Both the position numbers and the translations under genes were made by a program. Under the pieces are notes generated by a model. It was not told where the DNA came from. It did not search any database and saw only the letters and a list, made by a program, of their open reading frames with translations. DNA of 64,000 nt from a virus. Location of the stretch: the IMG/VR virus record IMGVR_UViG_3300031251_000003, positions 32,001 through 96,000 of that record; one strand, written 5' to 3'. Shown here one piece after another: positions 3 through 27,539 of the stretch (position 1 is the stretch's first letter; the number at the start of each line of letters is the position of its first letter).

Positions 3-3000
3 AGTGAAGCACGCTTTGCATGGGGGCATGGTTATGAAAATGGTTATGAGCTTTATGGTCATCACAGTACTCCCGATGTAAACGCTCATGCTGAAGCAGC
101 CCTAGCTTACTTCATCAATAGTTTTCAGCAAGAGACTAGCAAGACGGCTGGTGAGTATACTCCCATGGTCAAGGGTATCCGTGGTCGATGGATCTTACTC
201 CACGATGGAACTGTGTTGAGTGACGATGATCCAGGGACGATACACGCTCAGATTCTATTAGACAATGGAGCAACACCGGATCAGATAAAGGATATTGGAT
301 TCGATGATGTCAGTCTGCGGAAGTACATTGATAACTATTACACATTCTATAACAATGTAAAGCAGGATCAAGAGCGCCAGCGTAATAGCTCAACTGATCA
401 GTGGGACAACATCCAGCCTGTCGATGATTCTTGTTACCTCGTTGCTGCTGATCTCTCTCATGAGTACCCAGAATTGCATTATGAAGCTGGTCAATATGGT
501 GATCAGGGCGAACATGCGTGGCTACGAATGGATGATGGAACAATCATTGATCCTACTCACGGTCAGTATGATGAGAGCAAGCCGATGAATATTGTCAAGC
601 CCAATGATCCAGCCCAGAAACTGTATAAGTCGTGGGCTACTAATCCTAACATGACTACTGATTGGAATAATTACCCAGAAGAGTTTATGGATGATCCCGA
701 TGATCCATTACACTGGTTATTTAGAGGAAAGCCAGGTCATCCTCATTCTGGCCCCGATGAGTTTGATGGAGCAATGGCTCCCAAGACGGCAGGCTGGGAA
801 CAACAGCAGCTTAACCCCGACGCTCAGTATATATGGGTAAGAGGTAATAAAACCACAGTAGCGGCACCAACATGGTACTCTCATGGCTCATTGATCCAGT
901 GGCTTCGAGATCATAATGAAGAACCATTATCCACGGGCAATATGTCATTGGGTAAGGACTTACCCGCTAATACTGTCGTGCTTCTATGGGAGGATGATGA
1001 GACAGGTGATAAATACTCAAAGGCAAGCTCAACTGTCACGGTACGAGATGATCCTCATCCCAAGAGCTTTATCTGGACATACGATGTGAACAAGGATCAT
1101 TTCACGGTAGGCAATCGTGACTGGTATCACACACGCTACTGGCCATCTACTGATGGTGGTGTAGTGTGCGGTGGTGTGAATCCCGATGGAGTGTGGAGCT
1201 ATGATGACTCCACCAATAAGACTACACCATCCGAAGCGAAAGCATTGATGCAGAATCTATTGGATCAAGGACTTCAAGAACAACTAACCAACAAAACGAG
1301 CGCTGTGGTTCCCAATCCTACAGAACCGTGGAATGATCCAGCATGGTTGAAGCAATGGCAGGATAGAGAGGACGAAGGAGGATTCTATGGTGATCATCGT
1401 GAGATCGCTAATCCTTATATCCCGTTCTTGGTCATGGAAGATGGCAGAACCTGGATAGGCTGGGACTATGCTTCACATGCATATGAATGGATGGTCGATG
1501 AAGCAGAAGAAGAGTTGAATATTGATTACAATGCAATGAAGGATTCACAAGGATCTATCAACTTCGCGGATCAAGAGTATGAAGTTCACTGGCCCAATCA
1601 TGGATTGCATAGAGAGCTAGAACAACAGATCGTAACCGAGATAGTCAATGATGTAGAGGATGAACGCAAGCGGGCATTCGAACGGGGTAGATTGGATGAC
1701 AAGACAGCATGGGTAAAGACGGCGACACGAGTGGACGTATCTAATCCCGAGGATCTAACACAATGGCGCTGTGGTTTATGGGTATACGATGAGAAACAGG
1801 ATCACTTGGTCTTGGCCCCGTATTTCTCACACTATCCGTTTCATGCCAAGCTGATCCGAGACTACATGTGGGACTTCGAACCCAATGATCGAGACTATGA
1901 GGCTCTAGTAGCTGGACAATGGTGGCTCAGAAACAACGACTTGGTTGTGGCCGAAATATACCCGGATGATAATGAAATTGAAGGGCCAATGAAAGATATG
2001 ATCGAGGGCTACATTAGTGAACATCTACAGACAGAGACAACGGCTGGATTGAATGGTGATCTACCCGACAACCTGCGGAACATTCCTTTAACAGAGAACG
2101 AAGGATGGTGGGGAACATACATCACCGATGTACCCGTGAGTACCGATAGACTGAGTAGAGATGTACTAACGACTTCCCCCACTCCACTCTCCAGACGTGA
2201 TGAGCAACTGACTCACAGGAATTCGGCATATATAAACACACATGAAAGTCAAGGCTTGACATACACTTCAAGTTATGCATCGGATCCAACAACCCCGCAT
2301 GAATACACAAGTAATATAACATCTGCCCTAGGGCTAGACACCATGCGGCACACTAACACCCCTATAGGCAAGTACCCCCACCAAGGTTGCCCCTCTAGGG
2401 TACCCCCGTGGCATAAAAGAGAGTACCTTTCCGCAAATGGAGAGGTTCCAGAGGTCGAGGACACAGGGGCAAGAACCGCAAGTGATACCCCTTGGTGGGT
2501 AGTGGCAGAGCCAGGGGAGGAACCGAACCAAATAGCATGGGTGGCGGATCTGAACACAAGAACGGTCTATGTAGGCGAATGGCATGGAGAGATCTTCAAG
2601 TCCCTCATGGGCCTCAACTACGATCACACAACGGATGAACAAGCGGAAGAAACACCCAATCTTGCCACGGGAAGAAGCTGGACACAGTTCTACGGAACCG
2701 AAATGAGCAGGGAACAAATAAAAGAGATGCTTCAAGCCATCCACGATTACTACGAACAAAGAGCCTACCATTTTTCTACAGATATTTTCCCCAGGGTTGA
2801 GGACATCCAGGCTTCCCCTAACAGCAAGTTAACGGCTCTATTCGAGGATATCAACGGTACGACGGCCTTTGCATGGAGTCCCGAACAACTCATTCAGGGC
2901 CACAATCATCGTTTCATTATCATGAAGATCCGAGATCAGGGGCTGGATCCCAATGACTTCACCTACGGATGGAAGAATGGAGATCACTTCTATATCCATT

Positions 3001-6000
3001 CATGGGATCATCAGGACTTCCAGGCCGAACATCAGATACTTGAGTGCAAGAAGGCTTTAGAGGCGATGGGACTCCACGATGAGGATGGGCCTTCCTTCCA
3101 GGACACTGGTAAGGTCACCGGTACACTTGAGCAACAGATTCACCCAGGTTGGGGAGGACAATCGCTTATCTATTTCCGGGGAAAACAGTATAGCGCCCCG
3201 ACTCATGCCCAGAATTTCAGAAAGCTTATTGGCGATGGAGCCTCATCGGAAGAGATCCTCCATGAAGGTATCCCCGGTGCCCGTTACTTGGATCCAGGTG
3301 CACAGAGACGTATAGGGAAAGTGGCGGCAATAAACGAAATTCCAGTAGAAACAGCGGGGATGCATCCATGGGGAGATGAACCCTTTATCTACTATGCACC
3401 GACCAATACTGTGTATGTTGCAACAAAATCGGGAAGGCATGGAGACATCATGCGCTGGATACAGGATCACGACCCGGAAACGTTCGCCCTGATTACCGAT
3501 AGGAGCACGGGATTGGACGCTTTCAAGAATATCTTCTATGGAGAATTCGTTCCTTTACATGAATGGAGGGGAGAAGTGGAGTCCGGGGAGATAGATTACT
3601 TCACCGCGAGCGGTTCAAGGTTGACATCCGATGAGGTACCGGAGGAACTCAAGCAATGGGCCGAAGCCCGTTGGGGCAATGTCACATCCAAAGTAATAGA
3701 GTCTCATCCGAGTCTCCATATCGTGGACGTAGATAACTACAGTAGTAGGATTGAAGGGCTTGAGCGTCCTGTATTACAACGGGAAGGCGATTCTAATCTC
3801 TATGTTGGACTGTATGGTGGAGGGCATTGGGATCTAGCTAGTGTCGCTGGTATTCCTTTTGATAATATTTTAACACAAGGATGGATCGATGAAAGTGGAG
3901 AGTTTAACGCTTATTCGATAACCACAGAGGCTTACGATACACTGGAAAATGCAGGATATAACCCAGTCAGTAAAAATTGGGAAAGAACAATCGAAGATAA
4001 AGTAGAGTCTCATTTATCGGGTATCCAACTCACCCAACCCAATGAACCAAGGGATATTGATAATCCCGGTGTTAGGTGGATAAAGACCCAGGATGGAACC
4101 TACTACACCGATGAAGAGGAACCGGTCATGACTCATGCCCATCTAGTTCACCGCTACAAGATTCCCTTGGATAAGATAGTCGATGTAGGCGTGGACGATG
4201 ATAGCCTCTGGAAATACTATAGCGGTTGGTATCAGAACCATCTACCCACAGACTTTATAGAGTCTCATAAAACAGCTACTCAACTAATACCCATTGATTT
4301 GGACGATTCATCTTGGCATTCCGAACCCGCTTGGATCTATGATCCTAATAAGGATCTTCTTTACGTTTCTACCGGAGCCAGTCACCACGCAAGACTTTTC
4401 CATAGTATCCTTGGAGATGACTACGGAGACACAGATGCGATGAAGACCGGTTGGATCGATCTGGATAACAACTATGTAGCCTTTGTTGACGAGGATGAAG
4501 AATCGGCATTCGCGAACAATATCACGGCCATATTCTCTCGTTATTACGATAGGGAAATGAAGCCCATTGATGGAAATACTTGGATGGCCAAGTATGGATC
4601 AATAGAGTCTCATAAACAGGGTGCCAACATAGGGGAACCTGACCCGAACAATCAAGGGAAGTTCATGGAAGGCAGTCAGCCATTTATTTACTACAATGGC
4701 GATTTCTATTGGGGTAAGGGCGCTGAACACCATCCCGATATTCTACGAACTAACATGCTTTATGGTAAGACTCCATTATTAGCTGGTTGGGTTAACTTTC
4801 GCAAGAAAGAAATCGGTCTATGGTCGGGGAACGTTACACAGGATCGTACCATCGAAGATGAGGTAGCCCGACAACTACAAGAGCAGTTCCCGGATTTCGC
4901 TATAGATAAAGGCTTTCGTTTAGGGGCGGTAACCTCTTGGAAGATCGAGGTTCTCCCCGAATCGACTGGACGGAGAATAGATGACAGAGTAGCCTGGGTA
5001 GCAGATCAGGATTCTCATACAATCTATATCGGGGATGGTTGGTTCCATGGAGATATCTTCAAGCAGATTGGAGAATTAAATGTTGATCATGCCGGAGATT
5101 TACATTGGAGACAAGACAAAACATCAGCATTATTGGCAGGAAGTATCTGGAAGAATAACATCTTACTCTACGGAAAATCGGGTGAATGGAACCCGTCTGA
5201 TGAGGCAGAAGTCTACGACACTATAAAGGACTGGTATCGGGAAGAAAGGAGCGAAGATGTGTCCACCCATCAGCTTCCAAATGTCCACGCAATGTACCAA
5301 CAAAGTCGAGTGATGGATATCGATGATCCGATCAACGGTAGACCACAAGAAAAGCCCTTCAGTTTCATCTACTACAACGGCGATGTATTCGTTGGATACC
5401 TCCACACTCACCCGATGCTTGTCTCCGATATGGCGGGTATGGGAATTAAGATATTAGATAAAGCCAACACAGCGGCGGGTTGGGTAGATACAGCTAATCG
5501 AGTAGGTATGTTCTACTCCTTTGAACAGCAATGGCTAAATCGTAGTAGTGAAGAAATCCAGCAGATTCAAGCCAACGAAGAAGATGCCAAGAGGCAGTTG
5601 GAGTCATGGGTACCGGGATTGGAATGGGTAAACCCCAATGATTATCTCAGACGAACCACAGCAACAGAGTGGAACTACCAGAGTGCTTTCTGGTATAGCC
5701 CTAGAACGGGACTACTCACAGGTAAAGCTGCCCACTGGCAGCTAATCGGGGATGCTCTAGCTAATCTCCCCTACGAAGAACGAGAAACTATAATGCAGCA
5801 TTCTTACTTGGGTTGGATCTTCGAGTCCGAGGGAGGCAAAGAGAAGGTAGCCGTTCCTGCATCAGTGGAACACAACCTTGACCCTACTCTTGAAGAAGAG
5901 GCTAGAGAGGCTTTGAAACAAGAGGGAATCACCCTAGGTGATCCACAACCGGGGATGTTCCAGTTCGATAGCGAAGATTATCCCGCTGAAGACTATCATC

Positions 6001-6386
6001 TTGGACGTTTAGCAACTGAAGTAGTCGATATTCCCGAAGTTGAAGAGGAAGACTATCAAGAAAGAACCCGTAGGAAGCCTTTTGTCTACAGTCCGAGGGA
6101 AGATAAGCTCTATATTGGCCCTTATGGGAGTCATCATGTGGAATTAATCTGGAAAGCATTCGGAATGAATGATGATCCTTCGACCCCTGGTTTCGACGCC
6201 AGAGAGGAAATAGCGATGAATATCGAGGACGATCCGGGCAATCTTGGGGTTATTTTGGTAGATCAGGTCACAAATGCACCATATTTAGTACATTGTTTCG
6301 GTGATCCGAGCGATAAATGCCTCGAAGCCTTGCGTTCTACCTTCCCCGGTGTTAGAATAGAAGACGAGAACTGTGAGGTTATCTAA
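3..6386 (+). CDS. Giant modular protein (>2127 aa, 5'-truncated) with ~17 His-module repeats and one papain/transglutaminase-like domain; putative virion-internal polyprotein
   Basis: Frame is open from nt 3 (SEARFAWGHG...SKTAGEYTP) into the tracked ATG at 165. Recurring pattern [FW]-[IV]-Y/W...[LI]Y[VI]G...H..[LI]...G[WY][IV]; modules separated by KTA/KVA/RTA-like linkers. Confidence 0.8.
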   Translation, partial: SEARFAWGHGYENGYELYGHHSTPDVNAHAEAALAYFINSFQQETSKTAGEYTPMVKGIRGRWILLHDGTVLSDDDPGTIHAQILLDNGATPDQIKDIGFDDVSLRKYIDNYYTFYNNVKQDQERQRNSSTDQWDNIQPVDDSCYLVAADLSHEYPELHYEAGQYGDQGEHAWLRMDDGTIIDPTHGQYDESKPMNIVKPNDPAQKLYKSWATNPNMTTDWNNYPEEFMDDPDDPLHWLFRGKPGHPHSGPDEFDGAMAPKTAGWEQQQLNPDAQYIWVRGNKTTVAAPTWYSHGSLIQWLRDHNEEPLSTGNMSLGKDLPANTVVLLWEDDETGDKYSKASSTVTVRDDPHPKSFIWTYDVNKDHFTVGNRDWYHTRYWPSTDGGVVCGGVNPDGVWSYDDSTNKTTPSEAKALMQNLLDQGLQEQLTNKTSAVVPNPTEPWNDPAWLKQWQDREDEGGFYGDHREIANPYIPFLVMEDGRTWIGWDYASHAYEWMVDEAEEELNIDYNAMKDSQGSINFADQEYEVHWPNHGLHRELEQQIVTEIVNDVEDERKRAFERGRLDDKTAWVKTATRVDVSNPEDLTQWRCGLWVYDEKQDHLVLAPYFSHYPFHAKLIRDYMWDFEPNDRDYEALVAGQWWLRNNDLVVAEIYPDDNEIEGPMKDMIEGYISEHLQTETTAGLNGDLPDNLRNIPLTENEGWWGTYITDVPVSTDRLSRDVLTTSPTPLSRRDEQLTHRNSAYINTHESQGLTYTSSYASDPTTPHEYTSNITSALGLDTMRHTNTPIGKYPHQGCPSRVPPWHKREYLSANGEVPEVEDTGARTASDTPWWVVAEPGEEPNQIAWVADLNTRTVYVGEWHGEIFKSLMGLNYDHTTDEQAEETPNLATGRSWTQFYGTEMSREQIKEMLQAIHDYYEQRAYHFSTDIFPRVEDIQASPNSKLTALFEDINGTTAFAWSPEQLIQGHNHRFIIMKIRDQGLDPNDFTYGWKNGDHFYIHSWDHQDFQAEHQILECKKALEAMGLHDEDGPSFQDTGKVTGTLEQQIHPGWGGQSLIYFRGKQYSAPTHAQNFRKLIGDGASSEEILHEGIPGARYLDPGAQRRIGKVAAINEIPVETAGMHPWGDEPFIYYAPTNTVYVATKSGRHGDIMRWIQDHDPETFALITDRSTGLDAFKNIFYGEFVPLHEWRGEVESGEIDYFTASGSRLTSDEVPEELKQWAEARWGNVTSKVIESHPSLHIVDVDNYSSRIEGLERPVLQREGDSNLYVGLYGGGHWDLASVAGIPFDNILTQGWIDESGEFNAYSITTEAYDTLENAGYNPVSKNWERTIEDKVESHLSGIQLTQPNEPRDIDNPGVRWIKTQDGTYYTDEEEPVMTHAHLVHRYKIPLDKIVDVGVDDDSLWKYYSGWYQNHLPTDFIESHKTATQLIPIDLDDSSWHSEPAWIYDPNKDLLYVSTGASHHARLFHSILGDDYGDTDAMKTGWIDLDNNYVAFVDEDEESAFANNITAIFSRYYDREMKPIDGNTWMAKYGSIESHKQGANIGEPDPNNQGKFMEGSQPFIYYNGDFYWGKGAEHHPDILRTNMLYGKTPLLAGWVNFRKKEIGLWSGNVTQDRTIEDEVARQLQEQFPDFAIDKGFRLGAVTSWKIEVLPESTGRRIDDRVAWVADQDSHTIYIGDGWFHGDIFKQIGELNVDHAGDLHWRQDKTSALLAGSIWKNNILLYGKSGEWNPSDEAEVYDTIKDWYREERSEDVSTHQLPNVHAMYQQSRVMDIDDPINGRPQEKPFSFIYYNGDVFVGYLHTHPMLVSDMAGMGIKILDKANTAAGWVDTANRVGMFYSFEQQWLNRSSEEIQQIQANEEDAKRQLESWVPGLEWVNPNDYLRRTTATEWNYQSAFWYSPRTGLLTGKAAHWQLIGDALANLPYEERETIMQHSYLGWIFESEGGKEKVAVPASVEHNLDPTLEEEAREALKQEGITLGDPQPGMFQFDSEDYPAEDYHLGRLATEVVDIPEVEEEDYQERTRRKPFVYSPREDKLYIGPYGSHHVELIWKAFGMNDDPSTPGFDAREEIAMNIEDDPGNLGVILVDQVTNAPYLVHCFGDPSDKCLEALRSTFPGVRIEDENCEVI
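3697..4613 (+). repeat. Four exact copies of TAGAGTCTCAT (3697, 4003, 4258, 4603)
   Basis: Read directly. All are in frame (encode I/V-E-S-H); spacings 306, 255 and 345 nt. Confidence 0.9.
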
Positions 6387-8233
6387 TGTTGACGACACGT
6401 AGGCCAGTAATCCCACCTAAAGGCGGTGTAGCTTATTGCTACCTCGATGGGAACATTTACTATGAGACAGAAGGATCTCATATGGAACTCGTACGACAGA
6501 TGCTTGACCAGGGGATTCCTAGATCAGCACTCGATGCATACGATCCGGGGTACAGCGCCATCTTTGGTTATATCTGGAATACAAGTGATACAGAAGAACC
6601 AAAATATGTAAATGATCAATACTCTGATATCTACTCTAACACGAAGGATCCACAGAAGACAGCGGAACTGAATTCTAAGTTACGTGCTTTATTTCCAGAC
6701 ATCACAACAGACACCAGTGGCCCTTACTTCGAGCCAGTAAAATGGACATTGAGCCACATTTCTGATACAATAGATCCAATGTCCGATATGACACCTATTG
6801 AGACGGCTATCCAAGGAGAACCTGCGGCTTCCATGGCTATTCGTGCGCTGAATCAAGCAGGCGGACGGGTATTTGTCGTTGGTGGTGCAGTTCGCGATGC
6901 CATCCTGGGTCACGCACCCAAGGACGTAGATCTCATGGTTCAAGGTCTGGATGGCGATGCTATCGAGAATGCGCTTAAGGGTCTGGGTAGACTGGACTTT
7001 ACGGGCAAGCAGTTCGGTGTGTATCGCTTCAAGAGTGGAACCTCTGAGGTAGAGATTGCTCTGCCCAGGACTGAGGTTTCTACTGGCCCTGGCCACCAGG
7101 ATTTTCAGGTTACCACAGATCCTAACTTGGATCCCGAGCAGGATCTGGCCAGGAGAGATTTCACCGGTAACGCTATGGCATATGAGCCTGCAACCGGTCA
7201 ACTCATCGACCCTTACGGCGGTGCAGAGGATCTTAAGAATGGTACTTTGTCACTTGTAAATGACAAGGCATTCGAGGATGACCCTCTCCGTGTCGTTCGT
7301 GCATTGGTTGCTAATGCGCGGTTCGGCCTTGAGCCGGATGAGCAGCTTAAGCAATCACTGGCCGATAACGCTCAGAAGATCAAGCATCTTCCGGGTGAGA
7401 GAATTCAGGCAGAGCTTGATAAGCTCCTGTCTGCCCCTGACCCTGCTAAGACGATCAGCCTTGCGGAGCAGAGTGGTCTGATCCCGTATCTGTTCCCTGA
7501 GCTAGAGGCGGCTGTTGGATTCGATCAGCACAATCCTCACCACGATATGAACGTCTTCGATCACACTTTGTCGGTGCTGAAGAAGATGTCTACACTTAGC
7601 AACGATCCTGATATGAGACTCGCTGCGCTGTTCCACGACTCCGGTAAGCCCGAGTCGTACTGGAATGACGAAAATCACGGTGGCAACGGTGGTGGCCACT
7701 TCTACAAGAAGGTACTCCACGACGGAACTGTCATTGGTGCCGACCACGAGGATGTGGGCGCACGTAACGTTCGGGCATTCATGACGAGGATGCGTTACCC
7801 TAAGGATCGTATCGACCGTGTAGAGAAGCTGATCAAGTTCCATATGTGGAACTACTTCAACTCCGAGAAGGGAGCGAGGAAGTTCCTCCGTGCTCTGGAC
7901 GGCGATACCAAGATGGCCTTTGATCTTCTGGCTATCCGCGAAGCCGATTCAAGTGGTAAAAGAGACGGAGAGCCGAACAACTACGATAGAGAGATGATCG
8001 ACAAGGATCGTCAACTACTCCAAGATGTAATTGCTGGTCATGATGCCGGTGAACAGCACGCATTCACGATTAAAGATCTGGCCGTCAATGGTCACGATCT
8101 GATCTCTCTTGGTCTAAAAGGCCCGGAAATTGGTAAAACTCTGAACTATCTGCTCGATCTGGTCATTGATCATCCTGCTCTGAATGAGAAGGAAACACTC
8201 ATGAAAGTAGTCGATGAGGGTGTCCGGGTATAA
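6386..8233 (+). CDS. cca: CCA-adding tRNA nucleotidyltransferase with HD domain and an extra N-terminal His module
   Basis: VGGAVRD...DVD, DLARRDFTGNAMA, EDDPLRVVR, ERIQAELDK, HH..DHT...LFHDSGK (HD), C-terminal LAVNGHDL...GPEIG. Confidence 0.93.
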   Translation: MLTTRRPVIPPKGGVAYCYLDGNIYYETEGSHMELVRQMLDQGIPRSALDAYDPGYSAIFGYIWNTSDTEEPKYVNDQYSDIYSNTKDPQKTAELNSKLRALFPDITTDTSGPYFEPVKWTLSHISDTIDPMSDMTPIETAIQGEPAASMAIRALNQAGGRVFVVGGAVRDAILGHAPKDVDLMVQGLDGDAIENALKGLGRLDFTGKQFGVYRFKSGTSEVEIALPRTEVSTGPGHQDFQVTTDPNLDPEQDLARRDFTGNAMAYEPATGQLIDPYGGAEDLKNGTLSLVNDKAFEDDPLRVVRALVANARFGLEPDEQLKQSLADNAQKIKHLPGERIQAELDKLLSAPDPAKTISLAEQSGLIPYLFPELEAAVGFDQHNPHHDMNVFDHTLSVLKKMSTLSNDPDMRLAALFHDSGKPESYWNDENHGGNGGGHFYKKVLHDGTVIGADHEDVGARNVRAFMTRMRYPKDRIDRVEKLIKFHMWNYFNSEKGARKFLRALDGDTKMAFDLLAIREADSSGKRDGEPNNYDREMIDKDRQLLQDVIAGHDAGEQHAFTIKDLAVNGHDLISLGLKGPEIGKTLNYLLDLVIDHPALNEKETLMKVVDEGVRV

Positions 8234-9067: not shown

Positions 9068-9078
9068 ATCATCTATTA
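9064..9078 (-). promoter_or_regulatory. TAATAGATGA late-promoter-like motif
   Basis: 15-mer TAATAGATGATATGG is identical to 14622-14636. Confidence 0.55.
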
Positions 9079-9091
9079 GGGTGCGGTAGAG

Positions 9092-11262: not shown

Positions 11263-11289
11263 TGTGGAGATACAGGTTGGCGATGCTGC

Positions 11290-11395: not shown

Positions 11396-13546
11396 GTGAT
11401 GAATTCAGTAAAGAGCAACGTCTTTGATCCCATCCAACCTAACTTAGATCAAGTTATATTTAATGGCACGGATCTTAGGCCAAGTGTAAACAAATTTGTC
11501 CAAAAGATCTACTATCATGCCCTGAATCGTAAGCTTGGTGTGACGGGTAGGGATTGGGCACACCTGTATCTCACTGGCAGCCTAACAACTTACCAGTATT
11601 CGGCTACTTCTGATGCCGACCATAGTGTTTTCCCTGACTATGACAGAATTTGGAAGCATCTCAATATAGATCCGCATGATGCTCGTGTCATGTTGGTAGA
11701 GATGTCTATCGATTACCTAGATGGTATCTTCATTCCCGGAACCCTTCATCCTATCCAGTTCTTTGTCGAGAGTCCAGGGGTTGTACCGACTGATAAGTTT
11801 CGCCCAGGACTCAGATCTGCATATGATCTTTTGGATCGAGAGTGGTTTGTAAAACCAGAAAAGGAACGAGCACACAGCGTACAGGATGAATGGCCGGATG
11901 TCTATGAACGAGCTTCAGAGATAGCCGACAAGATGACTACTATGCTTGATTCTGGTAACTACGATGCGGCTCAGAACCTGTGGATTACAGTACACAAGAA
12001 GCGACAATTGGATCAGCAGGCCGATCTAGGAGATTTCTCTGAAGGCAACATCACCCTCAAGCTACTCTTGAATCGTGGCCTTATTGATCGTCTCAGAAAT
12101 GAAGTTGGATTGAAAATCCAGACTAAGGTAGGAACTCTCTATAATCCTTTGGATTCAAATAGGTTTAAGGCGGTGTTTGCCTTTGGTTATGATCCTGAGT
12201 CTGATACATTAGTGGCTGACAGAACTCATTACAGTGTCGTAAAAGAACTTATAGGGAAACTTGGTGCTCCCAAAGAAGATACTCGTGGTTTTGCAATGAG
12301 GATAAAACCCGTGCTAGGCTGGGTCTATCAGGACTACAATACAGGAGATCATGCACCAGATTGGAAAGTTGAGTTTGCCTCAGATCTCTATGACCAACAG
12401 GCTGGCTGGTCTGAAGCAAGGAATCAGCAGGCTCTAGAAGCCCTCCAACGAGAGAACCCTAACGCTAACATCACGTATGCGGGCCAGAGCGATTACAAGA
12501 ACCCAGATGATACCTATGAGTATCACGAAGCTACTCTCCACACAAGTATGCCGCCGTGTTGGCAGGCACCACAGTTCTTCGAGGATTATCAGAAGAGCTA
12601 TACACCTGAAGTAGGGGAAACTACAGAGGTTAGAGGCTATGATTGGGAAGTTGATTATGCCCGACTCTTCAAGCTTATTCACATGAAGACCTGGCCGCTA
12701 AAGAACATCGACGTAAGATTACTAACCCCGGAACACAAGGACTGGAACCAAATTTATGGGTATTACGAAAACGGCAAGATCTGGATCCATCCGTTCCTAA
12801 CTGCTGCTGAGGCTAGTGAAACTCTCTGGCACGAGATCCAGCATCAGTATCAGGATCAAGAAAAACGAAGACAATACTACAACTACAACGTCCCAAGGCG
12901 TAATTTCGATTATGATGTATCTGAGGAAGAACATGATCCTAGTCAATATGAAGAGCATCCCGACGAGATAGACGCAAATATGTTTGCTCAATTCATGAAT
13001 ATGGGAGAGCAAGCTTCTACGTTCTTGGTTGTGCCTATGCCGCCCAAGTACGATCCAACCTGGGTTCCCAGAGAACTACACCTGGATCGAGGCGAGTGGG
13101 ATGAACAGAACGAACTCTATGCCTTAACCCCGGAACAACTCAAGTCCGAAGAAGACGCACAGGTAAAGCTCTTCCGTACCGACTACAGTTTTTGGCAAGA
13201 GACTTGGGTTTCCGAAGAGAACTTTAGATGGAGTATCGTTGCTGCATTACCAGAGCTTTGGGAAGATCGAGTAACGACCAAGGTTATCTGGGATTGGGAC
13301 AAGGATCGTATCATCCTTGGGACAATGGCTTCATTGCCACAACTGCCTAACTCCAAGATAGTAGGAGAATACCATGACGGCAGGGTCACCTTGTTTGAAG
13401 CCGAGAAGCAATGGATCTCTCCTGTGTATTTCCGACGGCTCTGGCATAGTTCTTATCCTGATAAGGAACTGAAGGATGTTTACTTCCGTCGAGGTACGGG
13501 AGATGAGTATAAGTTGAGAAGTCTACCAAGGAAGCGAAATGTCTAA
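11396..13546 (+). CDS. Multidomain protein: Pol-beta-type nucleotidyltransferase + His module + HExxH metallopeptidase-like domain
   Basis: LTGSLTTYQYSATSDAD (GS..DxD); FAFGYDPESDTLVADRTH...LGWVY; LWHEIQHQYQ...HPDEIDAN. Confidence 0.75.
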   Translation: MMNSVKSNVFDPIQPNLDQVIFNGTDLRPSVNKFVQKIYYHALNRKLGVTGRDWAHLYLTGSLTTYQYSATSDADHSVFPDYDRIWKHLNIDPHDARVMLVEMSIDYLDGIFIPGTLHPIQFFVESPGVVPTDKFRPGLRSAYDLLDREWFVKPEKERAHSVQDEWPDVYERASEIADKMTTMLDSGNYDAAQNLWITVHKKRQLDQQADLGDFSEGNITLKLLLNRGLIDRLRNEVGLKIQTKVGTLYNPLDSNRFKAVFAFGYDPESDTLVADRTHYSVVKELIGKLGAPKEDTRGFAMRIKPVLGWVYQDYNTGDHAPDWKVEFASDLYDQQAGWSEARNQQALEALQRENPNANITYAGQSDYKNPDDTYEYHEATLHTSMPPCWQAPQFFEDYQKSYTPEVGETTEVRGYDWEVDYARLFKLIHMKTWPLKNIDVRLLTPEHKDWNQIYGYYENGKIWIHPFLTAAEASETLWHEIQHQYQDQEKRRQYYNYNVPRRNFDYDVSEEEHDPSQYEEHPDEIDANMFAQFMNMGEQASTFLVVPMPPKYDPTWVPRELHLDRGEWDEQNELYALTPEQLKSEEDAQVKLFRTDYSFWQETWVSEENFRWSIVAALPELWEDRVTTKVIWDWDKDRIILGTMASLPQLPNSKIVGEYHDGRVTLFEAEKQWISPVYFRRLWHSSYPDKELKDVYFRRGTGDEYKLRSLPRKRNV

Positions 13547-14636: not shown

Positions 14637-17614
14637 ATCTAAAGTTCGTGTGGGCCGATGGAAAGCTAGGGTTTGGTAGTGCATACAGCAAGGTTCACCA
14701 TAAAGACATTCTTCAGCAGATGATCGACAATGGACAGGTTCAATTTCCTGTCCAAAACTACGTTGCAGGCCAGTTCATCCAGGACGATTTTCATGGGCCA
14801 CAATTAGATCAGATCCGCATAGTATGGCAGGGTGGTAAGCATCCTACAACAGGAGAGCTACGTTATCAGATTCAACAAGAGTTGAATCGAACTAGCCGGT
14901 TGTCCATGTACTCTAAGGTATCTTACACTTCAGAGTTAGAGAAGTGGGTTTACGTTCGTGGTTATGGTGGAAATGTGTGGGAAGATTTGGAGTTTAGCCA
15001 GAGCGCACAAGACGACTGGTATAGAGAGAATTGGGCAGAGGATGAAGAAGATCCTCCTGATTACAGTGACGCCCTTGTGTCCCATCTTGAAACGCTTGGT
15101 TCACTTGTAGGTTTAAATTTGGATTACAAAAAGCCAGAAGATTGGCAGAAGTTAAAGGCCATGTTAGCAACTACTCCTTATGCGATGGGGTTATATGATT
15201 CGTATAAAAAGGTATTCAGTGGTGACTACTTTAATGGATGTACTCCACAAGAGGTTAACGAAGAATTGTTCTATGACGAAGCAACACCCGAAGGTGGCGA
15301 CCTAAGAGATTCTTATGGGAAGGTGGGTGCTGATGTAGAAGATACCGAACCCGCTGGCGTCAATGTAGGATTCTTACACGATCCTCACAAGGAACTCTAT
15401 CCTAATCTATTTCGTGGTGGAAAGGTGATCCCCAAGGATGTCCGTGATATCCTAAAGAACCATGTATTAGAGCCACTTTCACAGGAATTCGATAACCCGG
15501 ATAGCTTCATCTACTTTACCATCTATGGTTCAGGGATCTCGTACAATTGGGATGAGAGTGGAGACTTGGATCTTCAGTTATGGGTTGACCTTGAGAAATA
15601 TAGCGCGACTGCTAACGATCCTCTCCCGGTCGATGATCTCTTAGCAGATATCCGCCGCATCGTTCAAATGGTCAACTTCCCATCCTTCAATGAACTAGGA
15701 TTGACCGATACAGGAACGGCTACTGAGGATACAACGGGAGTAATGTTGATCCAATACTATCCGAAGCCCGGTAAAGGAACCAAAGAAGAGAACCTAGCCT
15801 CACAACCGTACGCTTGTTACGATCTAGAGACAGACAAGTGGCTCGTGAAGCCAAAGCCCATTAGACCTAAGTTCTATGGCGAAAACTTCCTACTCCTAAT
15901 GCCCAAGGCTAAAGATATCGCTCTACAGACCGAGGCACTTCTAGGAGAGTACCAGCGTAATATCCTTAACTGGCAGTTTTGGTACGCGATGTGGTCGAGG
16001 TACAAGAAGAAGGAATACAAGGATCAGTACAAAGAGGCCATGGATGATGCCACGCAAGAGAAGGAAGGGATCAAAGTTCTTTTCCAGGGTGTCTTCGGTG
16101 GACGTGCTGAAGCATATTCTCCTGAAGGTCAGGGGATCATGGACGAACGTGATATGCTACAGAAGCTTTTAGAAGTCTGGGGAATCTTCCAGGATCTTAA
16201 GCATTTCGCTCGTGCTCCGTTGCCTTGGGAAGAGCAAGATATGCCGTTACCTACATCCTCAGTCAATTTGCAATTGATCCCCGGTGGTGGAGATTCAGAC
16301 CGGCCCAGATTCAAGAAAGACGACCAAGTTACTGGTGCTCCTGGGTCTGATCGAGAAGGTATTCGAGGCTACATCATCTATGGCCCTGACGAGGATGGGA
16401 GTTATGGAGTCCAATGGTATCCTATAGATTCAGATATGGAGTTACGTAGAGATAACGAATTGATACCTTACGGTTATACAGGGCCAAGGAGAATGGCCGC
16501 TACTCATGAGGATATCCTCTATCACGGCGGCGGTACCTTCTATGGAGTCTTCGACCCTGATCTCAAACCTTCCACGAAGGATCATGGATATTGGGTTTCA
16601 GTACAGGGCCAAGAGTACATCATTCCCAAGGATGATCTCAATATGGATGTCGTTCTCAACTATGCTGATCATGCTATTACAGAAGTTGGAGAATACATCG
16701 GGGCCTGGATTGATCAGGCTAAAGTATACCTGGACGTAACGAAATGGTTCCCTGATTTACAGGAAGCAATACAGTTTGGGGAACAGAACCATCAGCTAGC
16801 CATCTGGGATATTGCTAACCAAACAGAGATTCCTTTGGCCACAACACCACGCACAGCGGCGTTACGCAAGCTTGCGGTATGGTCTGACATCATGGAAAAG
16901 GCTAAGAGACTCCGAGATACCGGTAAAGTACAGATTACTAACAACCTTTCCAACCATGTTGTAGGTCAGGTCGAAGGAGATCATGGAACCTACAACACAG
17001 AGATATGGCGAGATGATCCTAATAGTGGTACCATTAGTCTGTGGAATTGTGATTGTCCATGGAGTCAATACTCTTGGGGTAGAACGAGACAATGGAAGAA
17101 GTACGAAGGTAGACCTTGCGCTCACACTCTAGCCCTTTATTGGACAGCGTTGGCGACACCAGTTGCCGATGAGAACCAGCAGACTCTTCCTGGAACCACA
17201 GCACCAGGGCAGTCACCGCAACAGCCCAGCCCATTGGATCTTCCAAATGCTCTTCAACAGACCATTCCTCCACAGATGCCTCAATCCCAGCCTGTGGTTC
17301 CGAGCAAGGAGAACGAACAGCTAACTATTTCATTCCCCGGTGCTCTATCGAAGTGGAGAAAGGAAGGTGCATTTATGAACGGAGATATCGTTAGGGTCAA
17401 CCAGAAAGTTGAAGGTTGGGATGATCGAGAAACGATGCATTCTATTCAAAGGAACACCATTGGTGAAGTTATCTGGTCTGACGATGAGGAAACAATTTGT
17501 ATCTTCTCACTCAATTCTGGGATGCTTGGGCCACATAATGTACGAGTCACAGCACCAACTTCGGCATTTACTCTGATGCCCCGAACTAGAGGGGTTGCAC
17601 CACGGAGACAATAG
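14633..17614 (+). CDS. Multidomain protein: two His modules + Pol-beta NTase + SH3-like + unknown domain + SWIM Zn finger + SH3-like
   Basis: IYGSGISYNWDESGDLDL (NTase); CDCPW...PCAH (SWIM); FVWADGKLGFG...HHKDIL...VAGQF (His module). Confidence 0.75.
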   Translation: MDLKFVWADGKLGFGSAYSKVHHKDILQQMIDNGQVQFPVQNYVAGQFIQDDFHGPQLDQIRIVWQGGKHPTTGELRYQIQQELNRTSRLSMYSKVSYTSELEKWVYVRGYGGNVWEDLEFSQSAQDDWYRENWAEDEEDPPDYSDALVSHLETLGSLVGLNLDYKKPEDWQKLKAMLATTPYAMGLYDSYKKVFSGDYFNGCTPQEVNEELFYDEATPEGGDLRDSYGKVGADVEDTEPAGVNVGFLHDPHKELYPNLFRGGKVIPKDVRDILKNHVLEPLSQEFDNPDSFIYFTIYGSGISYNWDESGDLDLQLWVDLEKYSATANDPLPVDDLLADIRRIVQMVNFPSFNELGLTDTGTATEDTTGVMLIQYYPKPGKGTKEENLASQPYACYDLETDKWLVKPKPIRPKFYGENFLLLMPKAKDIALQTEALLGEYQRNILNWQFWYAMWSRYKKKEYKDQYKEAMDDATQEKEGIKVLFQGVFGGRAEAYSPEGQGIMDERDMLQKLLEVWGIFQDLKHFARAPLPWEEQDMPLPTSSVNLQLIPGGGDSDRPRFKKDDQVTGAPGSDREGIRGYIIYGPDEDGSYGVQWYPIDSDMELRRDNELIPYGYTGPRRMAATHEDILYHGGGTFYGVFDPDLKPSTKDHGYWVSVQGQEYIIPKDDLNMDVVLNYADHAITEVGEYIGAWIDQAKVYLDVTKWFPDLQEAIQFGEQNHQLAIWDIANQTEIPLATTPRTAALRKLAVWSDIMEKAKRLRDTGKVQITNNLSNHVVGQVEGDHGTYNTEIWRDDPNSGTISLWNCDCPWSQYSWGRTRQWKKYEGRPCAHTLALYWTALATPVADENQQTLPGTTAPGQSPQQPSPLDLPNALQQTIPPQMPQSQPVVPSKENEQLTISFPGALSKWRKEGAFMNGDIVRVNQKVEGWDDRETMHSIQRNTIGEVIWSDDEETICIFSLNSGMLGPHNVRVTAPTSAFTLMPRTRGVAPRRQ

Positions 17615-17866: not shown

Positions 17867-20096
17867 TCTTCCCGACTTCGGTGGGGCACAGCAGTATGAT
17901 CTCATGGCCGCTCATATCATGGAAACCTTCCCTGAATCCGAGTGGCCATTGTGGGTTAAGAACCGTTCTCGTGCCAAGCAATCAGAGCCATTAGACCAGG
18001 GAACCACCCCGTTTCAACCTGAATGGTTGACCAACGAAGGTAAGTGGAAGATTGCGGCAATGAATCTGGGTATCCCAGCCGACTACACGCCTGCTGATCC
18101 TTATGATATCCACGGTAAGATGCCGTTGATCAATGCTATGGAAGTCAAGTGGTGGGAGATGCCACCCGATCAGGCCAAGCAGGTTATTGTCAATGCGTTC
18201 CGAGCCACGATGTTGAGTCCTCGAATGAACCTCAAGAGTAACGCGATCCTGTATCAGTCTCTCATGGATATCCCAGCAGACGAATCTGACCCAACTGTAT
18301 TTGAAAATCGTATTAGAGATCTAAAGGCTAAGTGGGATACGCAGGGTCAGATGGAACTTGGTCAGCAGCCCGATACTGTAATAGATCCTAATGAGATTTT
18401 ACCCGGCAAATTAATGCCTGGGTTCTGGGGTAACCTACGAAGGCTAGCAGGGCTAGGGCCGTTTGTCAATGATCTCTATCGTGCTGCTATGGATGACATA
18501 GAACACGGCGGCAAGGGTCAGATCTTCCGCAACGAGATTCTACACTTAGATATTCCCGGTGTTCAGTCCAAGGTTGCGTCTTTCGCTTGGTTGGCGTTAT
18601 CGCCAAACACGTCCGAATTAGCAACTCTTGATGTTCACATGATGCGTCATCTCAATGAGGCAGACGAGTCACCCAAGAACGCTAAGCATTATCTTGATCT
18701 AGAGGATCGACTAAGGAATGAACGGGATGAAATCTACGGAACAGAGGTTCCGCTCAGTCATTATCAGTGGGGAGTCTGGGATTCACGACGTACACCGGGA
18801 TACCATCAGGATCATACGCCGCTCAGAGCTTACCAACCTACACCATTCACAGATATAGCGTGGCCTAATACATATAGGCCACCAAGACCACAGAGGTTAG
18901 AAGAGATGCACCCGGAACAACAGAGTTTATTAGGTAAATGGAACAAGTTGCCACGGTGGTCAATGGTCAAACTAGCAGATAGTTACTCTCTTCAGGGAGA
19001 GACTATCGCCGGATTACCTAACTTGCAGGGTCAGGGAATCGCAGTCAGACCAGACCGTCAAAGTCAAGCAGAGATTGAATCGATCATCGAAGGACTTTCG
19101 ACACACAAGGATGATCAGCTAAAGCAGAAGAAGTTGATTCCTGATTGGGCTATCAATCGTGGTGGGAAGGTTGCTATGCGTGGATATCCTGATAAACAGA
19201 CTGCATTTGAGATATTTGTGAGAGACATTCTGAATGCAGCCGGTATTACACGCTTGAATGAATCAACCAATGTCTTCATTTACAATTGGGTTCTGGAACA
19301 AACACAAGGCGTAATCCCTAAGTATCCAGGGATAGATTACAATAGTACAAGACAATATCAAAACACTGTTCAAGACTTGGCTAAGAAGTTAGAGAATACC
19401 TCATTAGCTCTTCAGAATAAGATACCCGGAAAAGATTATCGACAAGACCAAGTTGATCGATATTTCAATGGTATCGTTCCTAAGCAAGCTCTTGACAATC
19501 CTCCAACTGCTCCGAGTGGGTTCACCTTAGGGCCAGATTCTGGATTCACTTATGCGCCAGGAGTTATCTGTGTAGCTGAGTGGGTTACTACAGATTTGGC
19601 ATGGTTATTACTCAATGATGCTTGTCTTGGAATTGTCGCAGAAAAGGGTGGGGCGGCTAGTCACGCCGTTGTCGTTGCCCGTACTCGAAATATACCGGTA
19701 ATTGTCAATGTACCCGAGGCTTCCAGAATTCAGCCTGGGGATCATTTGCAAATAGATTCTGGGCGTGCTATAATAGATGTTAATGGTGGACAGGTAGGAG
19801 ATTTTGGTGAAGCCAAGCAAGCCGAACTTCCCATCATCCGATTTGTTTGGTCGAATGGCCAGGGTAAGTCAACACCAGTTCCACAAGATGACCCCGAAAG
19901 TGGGGTTCTGCATCAGCATATCATCATGGAAATGATGCAGGCAGGGCAGTTTGACAGAAACAACTTTGCTATGGGCGTAATCTACCCGGACGGAAAGGTT
20001 CAGATGACAGGCAATCCAACCGACGAACCGCAGATGGAGCAATGGCTACAGACGATTCACCCGATTCAGGGCATTCAGCACGGCTTCGAGCTATAG
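17856..20096 (+). CDS. Multidomain protein: HhH-GPD (Ogg-like) DNA glycosylase + PEP-utiliser mobile phospho-His domain + His module
   Basis: IPGVQSKVASFAW...ATLDVHMMRHL...YLDLE; GIVAEKGGAASHAVVVARTRNIPVIV...IQPGDHLQID. Confidence 0.72.
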   Translation: MAINLPDFGGAQQYDLMAAHIMETFPESEWPLWVKNRSRAKQSEPLDQGTTPFQPEWLTNEGKWKIAAMNLGIPADYTPADPYDIHGKMPLINAMEVKWWEMPPDQAKQVIVNAFRATMLSPRMNLKSNAILYQSLMDIPADESDPTVFENRIRDLKAKWDTQGQMELGQQPDTVIDPNEILPGKLMPGFWGNLRRLAGLGPFVNDLYRAAMDDIEHGGKGQIFRNEILHLDIPGVQSKVASFAWLALSPNTSELATLDVHMMRHLNEADESPKNAKHYLDLEDRLRNERDEIYGTEVPLSHYQWGVWDSRRTPGYHQDHTPLRAYQPTPFTDIAWPNTYRPPRPQRLEEMHPEQQSLLGKWNKLPRWSMVKLADSYSLQGETIAGLPNLQGQGIAVRPDRQSQAEIESIIEGLSTHKDDQLKQKKLIPDWAINRGGKVAMRGYPDKQTAFEIFVRDILNAAGITRLNESTNVFIYNWVLEQTQGVIPKYPGIDYNSTRQYQNTVQDLAKKLENTSLALQNKIPGKDYRQDQVDRYFNGIVPKQALDNPPTAPSGFTLGPDSGFTYAPGVICVAEWVTTDLAWLLLNDACLGIVAEKGGAASHAVVVARTRNIPVIVNVPEASRIQPGDHLQIDSGRAIIDVNGGQVGDFGEAKQAELPIIRFVWSNGQGKSTPVPQDDPESGVLHQHIIMEMMQAGQFDRNNFAMGVIYPDGKVQMTGNPTDEPQMEQWLQTIHPIQGIQHGFEL

Positions 20097-25018: not shown

Positions 25019-25294
25019 ATGGAAGCTCTGGAAGCCAGAGAGATTGCTATTAGAGAATTGAACAGTTTGAGGGGAAGACTCTGCACGGTCATTGAATCGG
25101 CAGGGCTTCCCCAAAAACAAGAGAGAGCGATAGTTACATTGATCAAAAATGCTAGCTACCAGTCTCAAGCAGTGATTAGCGAGCTATTAGAAAAGCTCGA
25201 CAGTGGAGATATCAAATTCACTTACACAGAAAAATTGGATGGCCCATTAAATGATAACGAAATACGCGAACCTCGAACGTATATTAGAAGTTAG
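25019..25294 (+). CDS. Hypothetical protein
   Basis: 91-aa ORF within the head operon. Confidence 0.55.
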   Translation: MEALEAREIAIRELNSLRGRLCTVIESAGLPQKQERAIVTLIKNASYQSQAVISELLEKLDSGDIKFTYTEKLDGPLNDNEIREPRTYIRS

Positions 25295-27539
25295 AAGCAG
25301 TAAGAGCCGATTAGGTTTTACCGAATCTGAATCTGATAACCAGCGATTTGCAAAGTTCGCTGGATTGAATAAGGGAATTCGTGAAGAGGATGGTTATCTC
25401 TACGTTAGATGTCGGGCTATCTCATCTCGTGTAAACAAGAACAACGACGGATGGCCGTCCGAAGAACTATCGAAGTCGTATAAGACCTTTGAGAATCGTC
25501 CTATCTTTGTCGATCACAATAATGACAATCCGAATAGGACTCGTGGGATCATTGTAGCATCCGATCTACACGTAGAAGACAAGGAGAAGGTGTCTGCACT
25601 TGACCAGTATTACTCAAGTGCTCCTGATAACCATCTACCTCCTACTTGGATCGAATTACTTCTAGAAGTAGATGCTAAAACATTCCCGAAGTTGGCCAAG
25701 GCTGTCAAGGAGAAGCGAGTAGATGCTGTGTCGATGGGTGCTAATATCGATACGAGTATTTGTTCTGTATGTGCCCATGAAGCAGCTACTCCTTCGGAGT
25801 ATTGTTCTCACGTAAAGAAGAAGGGATCTACCTTCGAGATTACATCCGACAATGGAGAGAAGGTACACAAAAAAGCATACGAAGATTGTTATGGGATTAA
25901 CTTCTTTGAAATCTCATTCGTCTTCGATCCGGCTGATCCTACCGCTGACGTTCTAGACAAGCAGGCCACAACTAAATCTAGTTCTGAAGAATGTGAGCAC
26001 TGTAGCCATTCTAAATATGATCATCAAGACGGAAGAGGCCCCTGTGAAGAGGCAGGCTGCCACTGTGAAAGATTCAGTGAGTCCCGAGAATCTAGTTTTC
26101 AATTGGCAGAAATGGTGGGTCAAACTCTTTCACCTGAGCGTCTAGCTCAACTAAAGCAGTCTATTCCTTCAGCAGAGCAGTTCATGGCACCGAAGGGACA
26201 AGGACAGAATGATCAACCGAAGAATCGTAACTACATTCCTCAAGAAGATCTAGTAACTGCACCCCAGCATGTGGATACACTTCGCAACGATGAAGTGTGT
26301 CCAGTTTGTCATGCTTCCGAAATGGAAACAGGGGCAGATGGAATTATGACGTGCCCTATTTGTGGTCACGTACAAGAACCAGAACCTCTTAATAACCCTG
26401 ATCTTTCCTTAGCTCAAGACAATCAATTGCGCGAAGATCAGGCACAACCAGGCCAGCCTGTCACTCCTGTCAATGCAGATCCATTGGATGCTGTTGAATT
26501 CGATCATGAACAAAGTCAGATAAGCCAGCCTACTAGTACTACTAAAAGAAAGTATACTCCAAAGGGAATAAGTGATAACGCTATGTTTGAAACCAAATTA
26601 CGAACCACATCAAAAGAGGAAGCTGATAAGATGTTACCCGCAAAGGTAGCTCGAATCGAAACCAAATTAGGTAGTGGTATCCATCGTGGAATTTATGACG
26701 CTGCTCGTGAGGCTGGACTTAAGGTTAAGGTTGCTTATCCTGCGGTTAAATCATCCTCTGAAAATACAGTTGAAGTCCCTGGCGACAACGGAATCTTCAA
26801 CTTGTTTTATGCAGAAGAGTCTGCGATGAATCTAAATGTACCGATGAAGGATGTGCCTGTAGTAATTGAGGCCGCTTCAGAGAAGGATGCTCAGGCATTC
26901 TTGAAGATTTTGACTGAGACTGCATTACCGACTCGGAAGGTTCGTGCTGGTAATGACAAGCAGCCAATTCTACCGGGATCCAAGCCGACCGATGAGCCTA
27001 AGAAGGAGAAGATCATCTCTAATCCGACTCAGCCCGTCGAGGCAGCACTCAAGGAAGCTATTGAGCTTTCTGATGGTGTAGTTGAGATCGATGGTAATAA
27101 GTACAAGTTGAATCTAGTCACTGACGAGGTTGAGGACGATGAGGTCAAGGAAGTAGAGGCCGACGAGTCCAAGGAAGATGAGAAGGAAGATACCTCCAAG
27201 GAAGTAGAGGATACCAAGGAAGAAGAGAAGGATGACGAAGACCGCGAAAGCCGACTGTTGGCAGCATTCAAGCTTGCTGATATGTCAGTCGAGATGGGAC
27301 TAGTTACTCCTGAAAACAAGATGACATTGATTGCTGAACTTGAAGATGAAAATCTGGGTCAGCTAGATGTTCGTGAGAAGACTTTGATCGCTGTAAAGAA
27401 TGCTGGTCTATCCAAGCGCACAGCATCATCGGTACATGGCATTAAGCGAGTTCCAAGATTAAGTCACGCTGTTCCAGCGCTAAATGGCAGTACGAGTACG
27501 CCGAAGGAAGATGTCCCCTTAGAGGCGCTTTTCCTCTAA
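25251..27539 (+). CDS. Capsid maturation (prohead) protease with Zn ribbons and C-terminal scaffold-like region
   Basis: YVRCRAISSRVNKNNDGW..EEL..SYKTF..RPIFVDH, AVSMGA, FFEISFVFDPAD; acidic C-terminus; two genes upstream of MCP. Confidence 0.8.
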   Translation: MITKYANLERILEVRSSKSRLGFTESESDNQRFAKFAGLNKGIREEDGYLYVRCRAISSRVNKNNDGWPSEELSKSYKTFENRPIFVDHNNDNPNRTRGIIVASDLHVEDKEKVSALDQYYSSAPDNHLPPTWIELLLEVDAKTFPKLAKAVKEKRVDAVSMGANIDTSICSVCAHEAATPSEYCSHVKKKGSTFEITSDNGEKVHKKAYEDCYGINFFEISFVFDPADPTADVLDKQATTKSSSEECEHCSHSKYDHQDGRGPCEEAGCHCERFSESRESSFQLAEMVGQTLSPERLAQLKQSIPSAEQFMAPKGQGQNDQPKNRNYIPQEDLVTAPQHVDTLRNDEVCPVCHASEMETGADGIMTCPICGHVQEPEPLNNPDLSLAQDNQLREDQAQPGQPVTPVNADPLDAVEFDHEQSQISQPTSTTKRKYTPKGISDNAMFETKLRTTSKEEADKMLPAKVARIETKLGSGIHRGIYDAAREAGLKVKVAYPAVKSSSENTVEVPGDNGIFNLFYAEESAMNLNVPMKDVPVVIEAASEKDAQAFLKILTETALPTRKVRAGNDKQPILPGSKPTDEPKKEKIISNPTQPVEAALKEAIELSDGVVEIDGNKYKLNLVTDEVEDDEVKEVEADESKEDEKEDTSKEVEDTKEEEKDDEDRESRLLAAFKLADMSVEMGLVTPENKMTLIAELEDENLGQLDVREKTLIAVKNAGLSKRTASSVHGIKRVPRLSHAVPALNGSTSTPKEDVPLEALFL

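Follow-up and report, generated by a model that had tools for sequence, protein, structure and literature searches.

Polyvalent proteins are very large phage proteins that carry several effector domains per chain; the prediction is that virions carry them, that they enter the cell along with the DNA and that they are processed into units (Iyer et al. 2017, PMC5512222). The internal proteins of phage T4, which are small, variable and partly anti-defence, and the ejection proteins of giant phages such as SPN3US are head cargo that is cut at a short motif by the prohead protease and injected with the DNA. A different point of reference is the phosphohistidine phosphatase PHPT1, of the Janus family, in which His53 is the general base and lies within a positive patch (PMC11277029). 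Here we report on a giant gene found in a 64,000-nucleotide stretch of phage DNA (the window), which covers bases 32001-96000 of the 158,106-bp IMG/VR virus record IMGVR_UViG_3300031251_000003, rated complete. About three quarters of its product, P0002, is a chain of 34-37 copies of one 95-115-residue alpha/beta domain (the module).

This locus both resembles the described systems and departs from them. As in polyvalent proteins, peptidase-like, nuclease, GNAT and 2H phosphoesterase effectors are combined and the genes lie near structural genes; however, polyvalent proteins have 2-15 mostly different domains, whereas here one domain is repeated 34-37 times. Several distinct effector domains were nevertheless found, namely an HNH nuclease and two Cys-His-Asp domains in P0002 and Acb1, LigT/2H, GNAT and PcfJ domains in its relatives, which together amount to a polyvalent-protein repertoire. 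No LPD model (LPD1-40) or other polyvalent-specific Pfam model matched P0002. Each of the T4 and SPN3US proteins has a gene of its own, and the cut falls after Glu (L/I-x-E, A-x-E), in contrast with the polyprotein with K-[TV]-A boundaries that we propose below.

In the window, the open reading frame (ORF) spans positions 3 to 6386 on the plus strand and is open at the 5′ edge. In the parent record its frame extends 7.8 kb further upstream, in agreement with an earlier note on this DNA, which had taken the array to be longer than the window. The full ORF has 4,712 codons (ATG at genome position 24248, end at 38386, preceding in-frame stop at 24223) and occupies 9% of the phage genome; the window part, P0001, is therefore the final 2,127 residues of P0002 (its C-terminal 45%) plus the stop codon, residue i of P0001 being residue i+2585 of P0002. 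A first motif scan, for a hairpin followed by a His, gave 23 sites in P0002, and iterated searches with a hidden Markov model (HMM) gave 24 strong and about 5 weak copies. In the cleanest test, the HMM was made from 839 modules that all came from proteins other than P0002: it found 33 copies at 3 bits or more, against 0.03 per shuffled protein, and 31 copies at 8 bits or more, against none in shuffles. Modules recur with a period of 104-131 residues. They are highly diverged, with 10-26% identity to the first copy and about 20% between paralogues, and the His, kept in every copy of P0002, is the sole invariant column.

The window holds 17-18 of these copies, 14 detected by HMM (4-43 bits), 3 short variants and 1 edge-cut copy, which bears out the count of about 17 in the earlier note. 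All lie on the plus strand. The array enters the window with the tail of a module that starts upstream (3..140, 8.2 bits; P0002 2538-2631, with its His before the window). Four copies follow at 819..1034 (His codon 882, a weak copy at 6.1 bits), 1062..1283 (His codon 1128, 11.3 bits), 1416..1676 (His codon 1476; 4.2 bits, and 55-56% identical to the orthologous modules of P0003 and P0007) and 1776..2048 (His codon 1842, 18.6 bits). A non-module linker of about 160 residues, rich in Ser, Thr, Pro and His and weakly conserved in P0004, P0005 and P0012, then runs from 2046 to 2522. Beyond it are the modules at 2523..2771 (AWVAD subtype, His codon 2583, 23.3 bits and BLAST), 2856..3080 (His codon 2907, 8.1 bits, with a diverged N-terminal hairpin), 3369..3695 (His codon 3438, 39.6 bits), 3762..4034 (His codon 3825, 15.4 bits), 4317..4565 (His codon 4386, 32.2 bits), 4668..4910 (FIYYNGD subtype, His codon 4731, 41.7 bits), 4980..5258 (AWVAD subtype, His codon 5046, 43.2 bits), 5349..5630 (FIYYNGD subtype, His codon 5409, 16.0 bits), 5676..5927 (His codon 5733, 14.5 bits) and, last, 6066..6365 (His codon 6135, 34.7 bits), which shares 42-45% identity with the module at the C-terminus of P0003, P0004 and P0007. 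The three short variants retain the hairpin, the His and the helix and are below the reach of the HMM: RWILLHDG...IHAQ at 183..410 (His codon 243), RWIKTQDG...THAH at 4074..4289 (His codon 4134), recognised by its BLAST pairing with the former, and a possible one seen by eye, SLIYFRGKQY...THAQ at 3165..3347 (His codon 3204).

BLAST of the window against itself recovered repeat pairs down to E 1e-12, among them the three distant pairs on which the earlier note had based its claim of duplication and shuffling: RWILLHDG with RWIKTQDG (P0001 62-113 and 1358-1410, 40% identity, E 1.5e-7), the two AWVAD units (842-952 and 1661-1779, 32% identity, E 1e-12) and the two FIYYNGD units (1533-1630 and 1760-1871, E 3e-5). 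That claim also agrees with the comparison between phages, where orthologues were only partly collinear. Between related phages, identity is about 70% in the N-terminal domain, 42-45% in the last module and as high as 56% in some of the internal ones; single modules are 35-56% identical across phages, compared to about 20% between paralogues, while module order and number differ. Copies are therefore individually maintained, yet shuffled, gained and lost.

The modules belong to a large family. The earlier note had proposed to build an HMM and search with it, and a profile of 24 modules, run against 1.84 billion representative proteins, gave 203 matches at E<=1e-3. The members are unnamed metagenomic proteins, many of 2,000-5,600 residues with up to 23 matched stretches each, and every context looked at was phage-like. 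In Pfam and PHROGs no model matched the module, whether the window part or the whole of P0002 was searched (for Pfam, also 24 single modules), and the lone matches on P0002 were to HNH, to YunG below threshold, to DUF2283 over 13 residues and, in the N-terminal domain, to phrog_12251. The module is a real, previously undescribed, phage-restricted domain family. Its description as unrecognised in the earlier note thus stands as far as Pfam and PHROGs go, and is qualified by the marginal link to Pfam PF05005 (Janus/PHPT1) set out below. In L007 (770-12025), modules are distributed over four consecutive genes (555, 297, 998 and 1,882 aa), the last of which starts with a 2H/LigT phosphoesterase, so that an array can be one gene or several. 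The module-bearing gene of another relative, L008, encodes 4,942 aa and also has a DUF7701 domain; an Apyc1-like anti-Pycsar metallo-beta-lactamase gene lies about 4-5 kb upstream of it (L008:5088-6014).

From the best 150 of the 203 proteins 864 module copies were gathered, 608 of them near-full-length. The His is present in 100% of these 608 copies. Next in conservation come an aromatic residue in strand 4 (97%), a Gly before strand 3 (88%), a Gly after strand 2 (74%) and a Tyr in strand 1 (71%), and most copies have a Gly-rich loop ahead of the His. Structure prediction for two different modules gave the same beta-beta-alpha-beta-beta-alpha domain, as expected if the modules share a fold (predicted local distance difference test score, pLDDT, 81 and 83; the second is the copy at 4980..5258, with a predicted template modelling score of 0.79), together with a flanking strand, phi-x-phi-E-phi-P, that is part of the repeat. 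In the predicted fold the invariant His is at the N-terminus of helix 1, and the conserved Gly at the start of strand 3. The array is thus a diversified series of one globular unit, as the earlier note had it, and neither low-complexity sequence nor a known structural repeat. Gelsolin-like repeats scored under the level that would indicate common ancestry, at 2-13% identity, and differ in the order of the long and short helices and in having no conserved His. DUF2283 (PF10049) shares a Y-D-x-x-x-D-x-L-Y-I beta-hairpin (E 1.1e-3, 13 residues), but the match, under the cut-off, is to the hairpin only, and DUF2283 has neither the His-helix nor the second half. An HPr-like phosphocarrier was also considered; HPr was outside the best 50 structural matches listed, which gives this idea no support yet is not evidence of difference.

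The only relative that could be detected, weakly, by sequence profile, by Foldseek and in the Atlas, was the Janus/PHPT1 phosphohistidine-phosphatase family PF05005. When a 144-module profile was compared to 177,635 PDB sequences, PHPT1 ranked 1-3 (E 0.03-0.05; next match E 0.48). Profile positions 19-89 were aligned with PHPT1 residues 48-118, which places the His on the catalytic His53, the Gly on GGGRI, the aromatic strand on VYGYS and the last helix on TEKIKAKYP. Foldseek on the PDB with the second model placed PHPT1 at ranks 1 (the human protein, E 0.045, 17% identity), 3, 6 and 15, and an Atlas shape search gave a Janus/Ocnus (PF05005) cluster as joint-best (template modelling score 0.53 over 82 residues). 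The same register was obtained with hhalign against 16 aligned PHPT1-family proteins (P 1.1e-3), but at 20% probability only. Beyond the similar size (about 100-125 aa), the likeness consists of the His within H-x-D-[IL] at the N-terminus of helix 1, the Gly with [RW]-I after it where the next strand starts, matching GGGRI, an aromatic residue one strand further on, and a long helix at the C-terminus whose end is [YF]-P. Other searches were negative or nearly so: PF05005 was unmatched even at E<=10 by the whole of P0002 and by 24 single modules, and a vertebrate-dominated PHPT1 HMM run in reverse against the 864 modules gave 6 matches at 5 bits or more, compared to 2 for reversed and 0 for shuffled sequences. 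The PHPT1 family is moreover single-domain, mostly eukaryotic and of 14 kDa, whereas the phage modules stand in chains of up to 35. We consider homology of the modules to PHPT1 somewhat probable; that they keep its chemistry is clearly less so. The suggestion of catalytic units in the earlier note gains weak support from the His on PHPT1 His53. Its mention of anti-defence effectors agrees with the counter-defence enzymes (Acb1, 2H phosphoesterase and GNAT) in relatives. SixA, a bacterial phosphohistidine phosphatase that acts on the phosphotransferase system (PTS) carrier NPr (PMC7948535, PMC6282199), may be a functional analogue of the modules; its fold, of the histidine phosphatase/phosphoglycerate mutase superfamily, is unrelated, and no search made here matched it.

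A second conserved element is found between modules. The tripeptide [KR][VT]A occurs 20 times in P0002 when 2.7±1.6 are expected, and K[VT]A 15 times when 1.3 are expected. Over the family, [KR][VT]A was counted 484 times where 143 would be expected, and it peaks sharply 15-30 residues ahead of module starts, where KTA is the commonest tripeptide. At modules bordering non-module domains, [KR][VTIL][AS] was found within 25 residues on either side in 24-28% of cases, compared to 2.3% inside modules. In the window, [KR]-[VT]-[AS] motifs span 141..5852 on the plus strand, nine of them in linkers (codons 141, 783, 1293, 1701, 1716, 2472, 3318, 4269 and 5844), mostly 12-25 residues ahead of a module; two further matches (4986 and 5118) are within the module 4980..5258. 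Judged by sequence, the K-[TV]-A pattern fits prohead-protease cleavage sites. The giant gene is in a same-strand block that continues into the genes for the protease, the cement protein and the major head protein. A putative candidate for the processing enzyme is the prohead-protease-like protein at 25251..27539 (plus strand; phrog_2774 4e-52, phrog_18299 6e-19), whose protease domain (residues 43-235) is fused to a 500-residue tail with a very acidic stretch. The major head protein (28171-29139, plus strand) has AKLA, PKLS and QKTS in its first 31 residues, PKLS being aligned with RKLS of Gordonia phage Skog. In Skog the homologue of the protease bears the annotation 'LysM-like endolysin', apparently in error.

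P0002 also has two other kinds of domain. An HNH nuclease domain (PF01844, 27-32 bits) lies upstream of the window, at P0002 1135-1173. The Cys-His-Asp domain is present twice, at P0002 14-125, upstream of the window, and at 2715-2800, which corresponds to window 390..647 (plus strand; Cys codon 432, His 513, Asp 549; PF24585 YunG at E 0.053, below the cut-off). Its C39, H70 and D82 are invariant or nearly so, a profile of it gave no match in the PDB, and its motifs (G-H-C-Y, H-W-W, D-P-T) look transglutaminase- or papain-like. Family relatives carry Acb1 (27.5 bits, cut-off 27), LigT/2H phosphoesterase, GNAT, PcfJ and DUF7701 domains.

Single modules were also found fused to neighbouring proteins, all on the plus strand. 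The next gene (6386-8233), whose start overlaps the stop of the giant gene, encodes a CCA-adding enzyme with PolyA_pol head, RNA-binding, HD and tRNA_NucTran2_2 domains. Its extra N-terminal extension of about 150 residues is one module, ending in KTA (6428..6724, family HMM E 3e-7), and the gene pair with the identical fusion is found in the metagenomic phages L004 and L006. Another module is inside a 716-aa protein (12176..12481 in 11396-13546, E 4e-4), and another at the N-terminus of a 993-aa protein (14645..14932 in 14633-17614, E 2.7e-3), as in the L004 homologue. The fourth protein, of 746 aa (17856-20096), has an unassigned 560-residue N-terminal part, then a PEP (phosphoenolpyruvate)-utilising-enzyme mobile domain, that is, a swivelling phospho-His domain (19557..19760, PF00391, E 1.2e-13, 50.9 bits for a cut-off of 23.1), with the signature GGAASHAVVVAR and His603, and finally a C-terminal module directly preceded by K-Q-A (19824..20093, E 4e-4; strand 657-668 pairs with 704-711). 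This protein may be a dikinase-like enzyme. Fusion of module and swivel domain occurs in two architectures, the family member P0143 having a module directly followed by the PF00391 domain. A complex prediction for the swivel domain (545-668) and the C-terminal module (669-746) of the 746-aa protein passed a mark that 51 of 78 solved complexes reach, as do 2 of 108 mismatched pairs, with a score of 0.66 against 0.01 for the best control, agreement between runs on at least 61% of contacts and partner pLDDT of at least 67. The interface, however, consisted of residues 657-668 only, the module's own first strand split off by the chosen cut, and it therefore reflects domain continuity, not docking; the prediction was not used as evidence.

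Our preferred reading, which we hold tentatively, is that P0002 would be a polyprotein of the polyvalent effector kind, composed of PHPT1-like units that would keep the His pocket and probably be released by cleavage, as predicted from the boundary motif. Each module would be a PHPT1-like unit, its pocket retained for a phosphoramidate group of the phospho-His type, and the diverged surfaces of the modules would address different protein partners. The units would be strung together with a few effector enzymes (the two Cys-His-Asp domains and HNH; in relatives Acb1, 2H and GNAT) in the manner of polyvalent proteins. K-[TV]-A would mark where the chain is cut, as would be the module-tagged enzymes beside it, most likely by the prohead protease, and the released pieces would travel with the DNA. 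The action on phospho-His, the cleavage and the packaging are inferred.

Several observations weigh against this. Besides the His no polar residue is strongly conserved (Asp/Glu at His+2, 53%; flanking-strand Glu, 67%). The basic patch of PHPT1 is missing: the modules are acidic, with a net charge of -2 to -12, the position equivalent to Arg78 is Arg in about 21% of copies, and that of His102 is aligned with acidic residues, so that neither is kept. Modules are also fused to proteins that have no phospho-His link, such as the CCA-adding enzyme, and a comparable giant gene is absent from Gordonia phage Skog, a cultured relative. Finally, the K-x-A motif could also be explained as a structural turn rather than a cleavage site.

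The same observations can be read otherwise. If the module were a non-catalytic adaptor, or a capsid-targeting or cargo domain, the giant protein would be mainly bulk head cargo or scaffold, the His would be retained because folding, or a docking contact common to the modules, needs it, and the similarity to PHPT1, accidental or ancient, would carry no information on function. Single modules would then tag the CCA-adding, 716-, 993- and 746-aa proteins and be removed at K-x-A, like the targeting sequences of T4 internal proteins. The mostly terminal position of the single modules in these four neighbouring proteins and in their homologues in other phages agrees with this, as do the boundary motif on both sides of modules and also beside non-module domains, the adjoining head genes, the single invariant polar residue and the lack of a PHPT1 basic patch. 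Giant phages are moreover known to carry large loads of ejection proteins, SPN3US being an example. On the other hand, it would be unusual if a pure adaptor kept one His in 100% of 608 copies that are only about 20% identical, targeting would not need 35 copies per chain, and module orthologues 35-56% identical across phages suggest that each copy has a role of its own. We consider this explanation rather unlikely, though a serious one.

Those orthologues, together with a fixed core and strongly diversified surfaces, are also what would be seen if the array stayed intact in the cytoplasm and its modules were sponges or inhibitors, each one binding either a small signalling molecule or a host defence protein of its own, and the Acb1-like and 2H counter-defence enzymes in related proteins, as well as the Apyc1 gene near one relative, point in that direction. 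No known sponge or inhibitor family was matched in Pfam, PHROGs, the PDB or BFVD, however, conserved pocket residues were not found beyond the His and the Gly, and a single invariant His is, to our knowledge, atypical of known sponges. As to the nucleotide-signal sponges suggested in the earlier note, nothing pointed to binding of cyclic nucleotides or gcADPR, and we regard the sponge or inhibitor explanation as improbable. Less probable still is a structural component of the virion, such as an inner-body or spool protein, a head fibre or a decoration chain, with the modules as beads on a string. The very large size, the tandem globular repeats and the same-strand block with head genes would suit it, but the embedded enzymes (HNH and Cys-His-Asp; Acb1, GNAT and 2H in relatives) are out of place in a protein with a structural role alone, module number and order vary widely between close phages, the closest cultured relatives make virions without a giant protein, and structural scores were under the level that would indicate a shared fold.

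A more specific form of the polyprotein reading is that the injected chain would be cut into about 35 PHPT1-like mini-proteins, each made for a different host phospho-His protein, from which the phosphoryl-His would be stripped or on which it would be trapped. The targets would be PTS carriers, sensor kinases and phosphotransfer domains, and host signalling and sugar uptake would be shut down at the start of infection. We give this version a low probability; were it true, histidine phosphorylation would for the first time be the target of a viral system, and the Janus/PHPT1 fold would gain a large prokaryotic-virus branch. If the link to PHPT1 holds, phospho-histidine signalling would become a target of phage attack, and an enzyme family known mainly from animals would have an unexpected origin or sister group. 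If the proposed processing holds, a single gene would furnish the capsid with dozens of small proteins, all different, which would be a new way of loading. Whichever reading holds, a previously undescribed domain family with an invariant His and a conserved boundary motif makes up the bulk of some of the largest proteins of phage metagenomes, and it deserves a name and a structure. The single modules are small, look soluble and lend themselves readily to tests.

The phage itself, of 158 kb, is tRNA-rich and myovirus-like. It has relatives among the cluster-C actinophages, and its major head protein is about 50% identical to the counterparts of cluster-C mycobacteriophages and of Gordonia phage Skog. 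No cultured phage matched the giant protein when 50,697 phage records were searched by tblastn and megablast, a word-based homologue search matched P0002 to itself only, and a feature search of the ESM Atlas gave no usable match. The idea of a DNA mimic was dropped: P0002 has a net charge of -396 and a pI of 4.6, yet most large proteins of this phage are equally acidic. A scan of 6000-14000 for promoters and terminators found sites rarer than in shuffles and was therefore uninformative.

Other features were noted in passing. An 840-aa protein (20523-23045, plus strand) has several zinc ribbons (TFIIB-type, IS1595-type and Lar-like) and three K-K/A-T-[AS] sites; the P0143 chain joins a module, the swivel domain and zinc ribbons similar to those of this protein. 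Among the head genes, a 187-aa protein (23628-24191, plus strand) has a phage tail-collar domain (PF07484, E 1.7e-22), and in L008 and L009, too, such a collar-domain gene comes immediately ahead of the giant one. A 1,118-aa ORF that lies before the window (G000:C1:9370-12726) has a predicted pI of 11.2, compared to 4.4-6.7 for the other large proteins of the phage. Past the window end, 46 tRNA genes and a transfer-messenger RNA (tmRNA) gene, with the tag ANANMSVPDFIPDWVMDESLVAA, form a 19-kb island (G000:C1:106276-124854), which includes three tRNA-His genes, one with the anticodon ATG.

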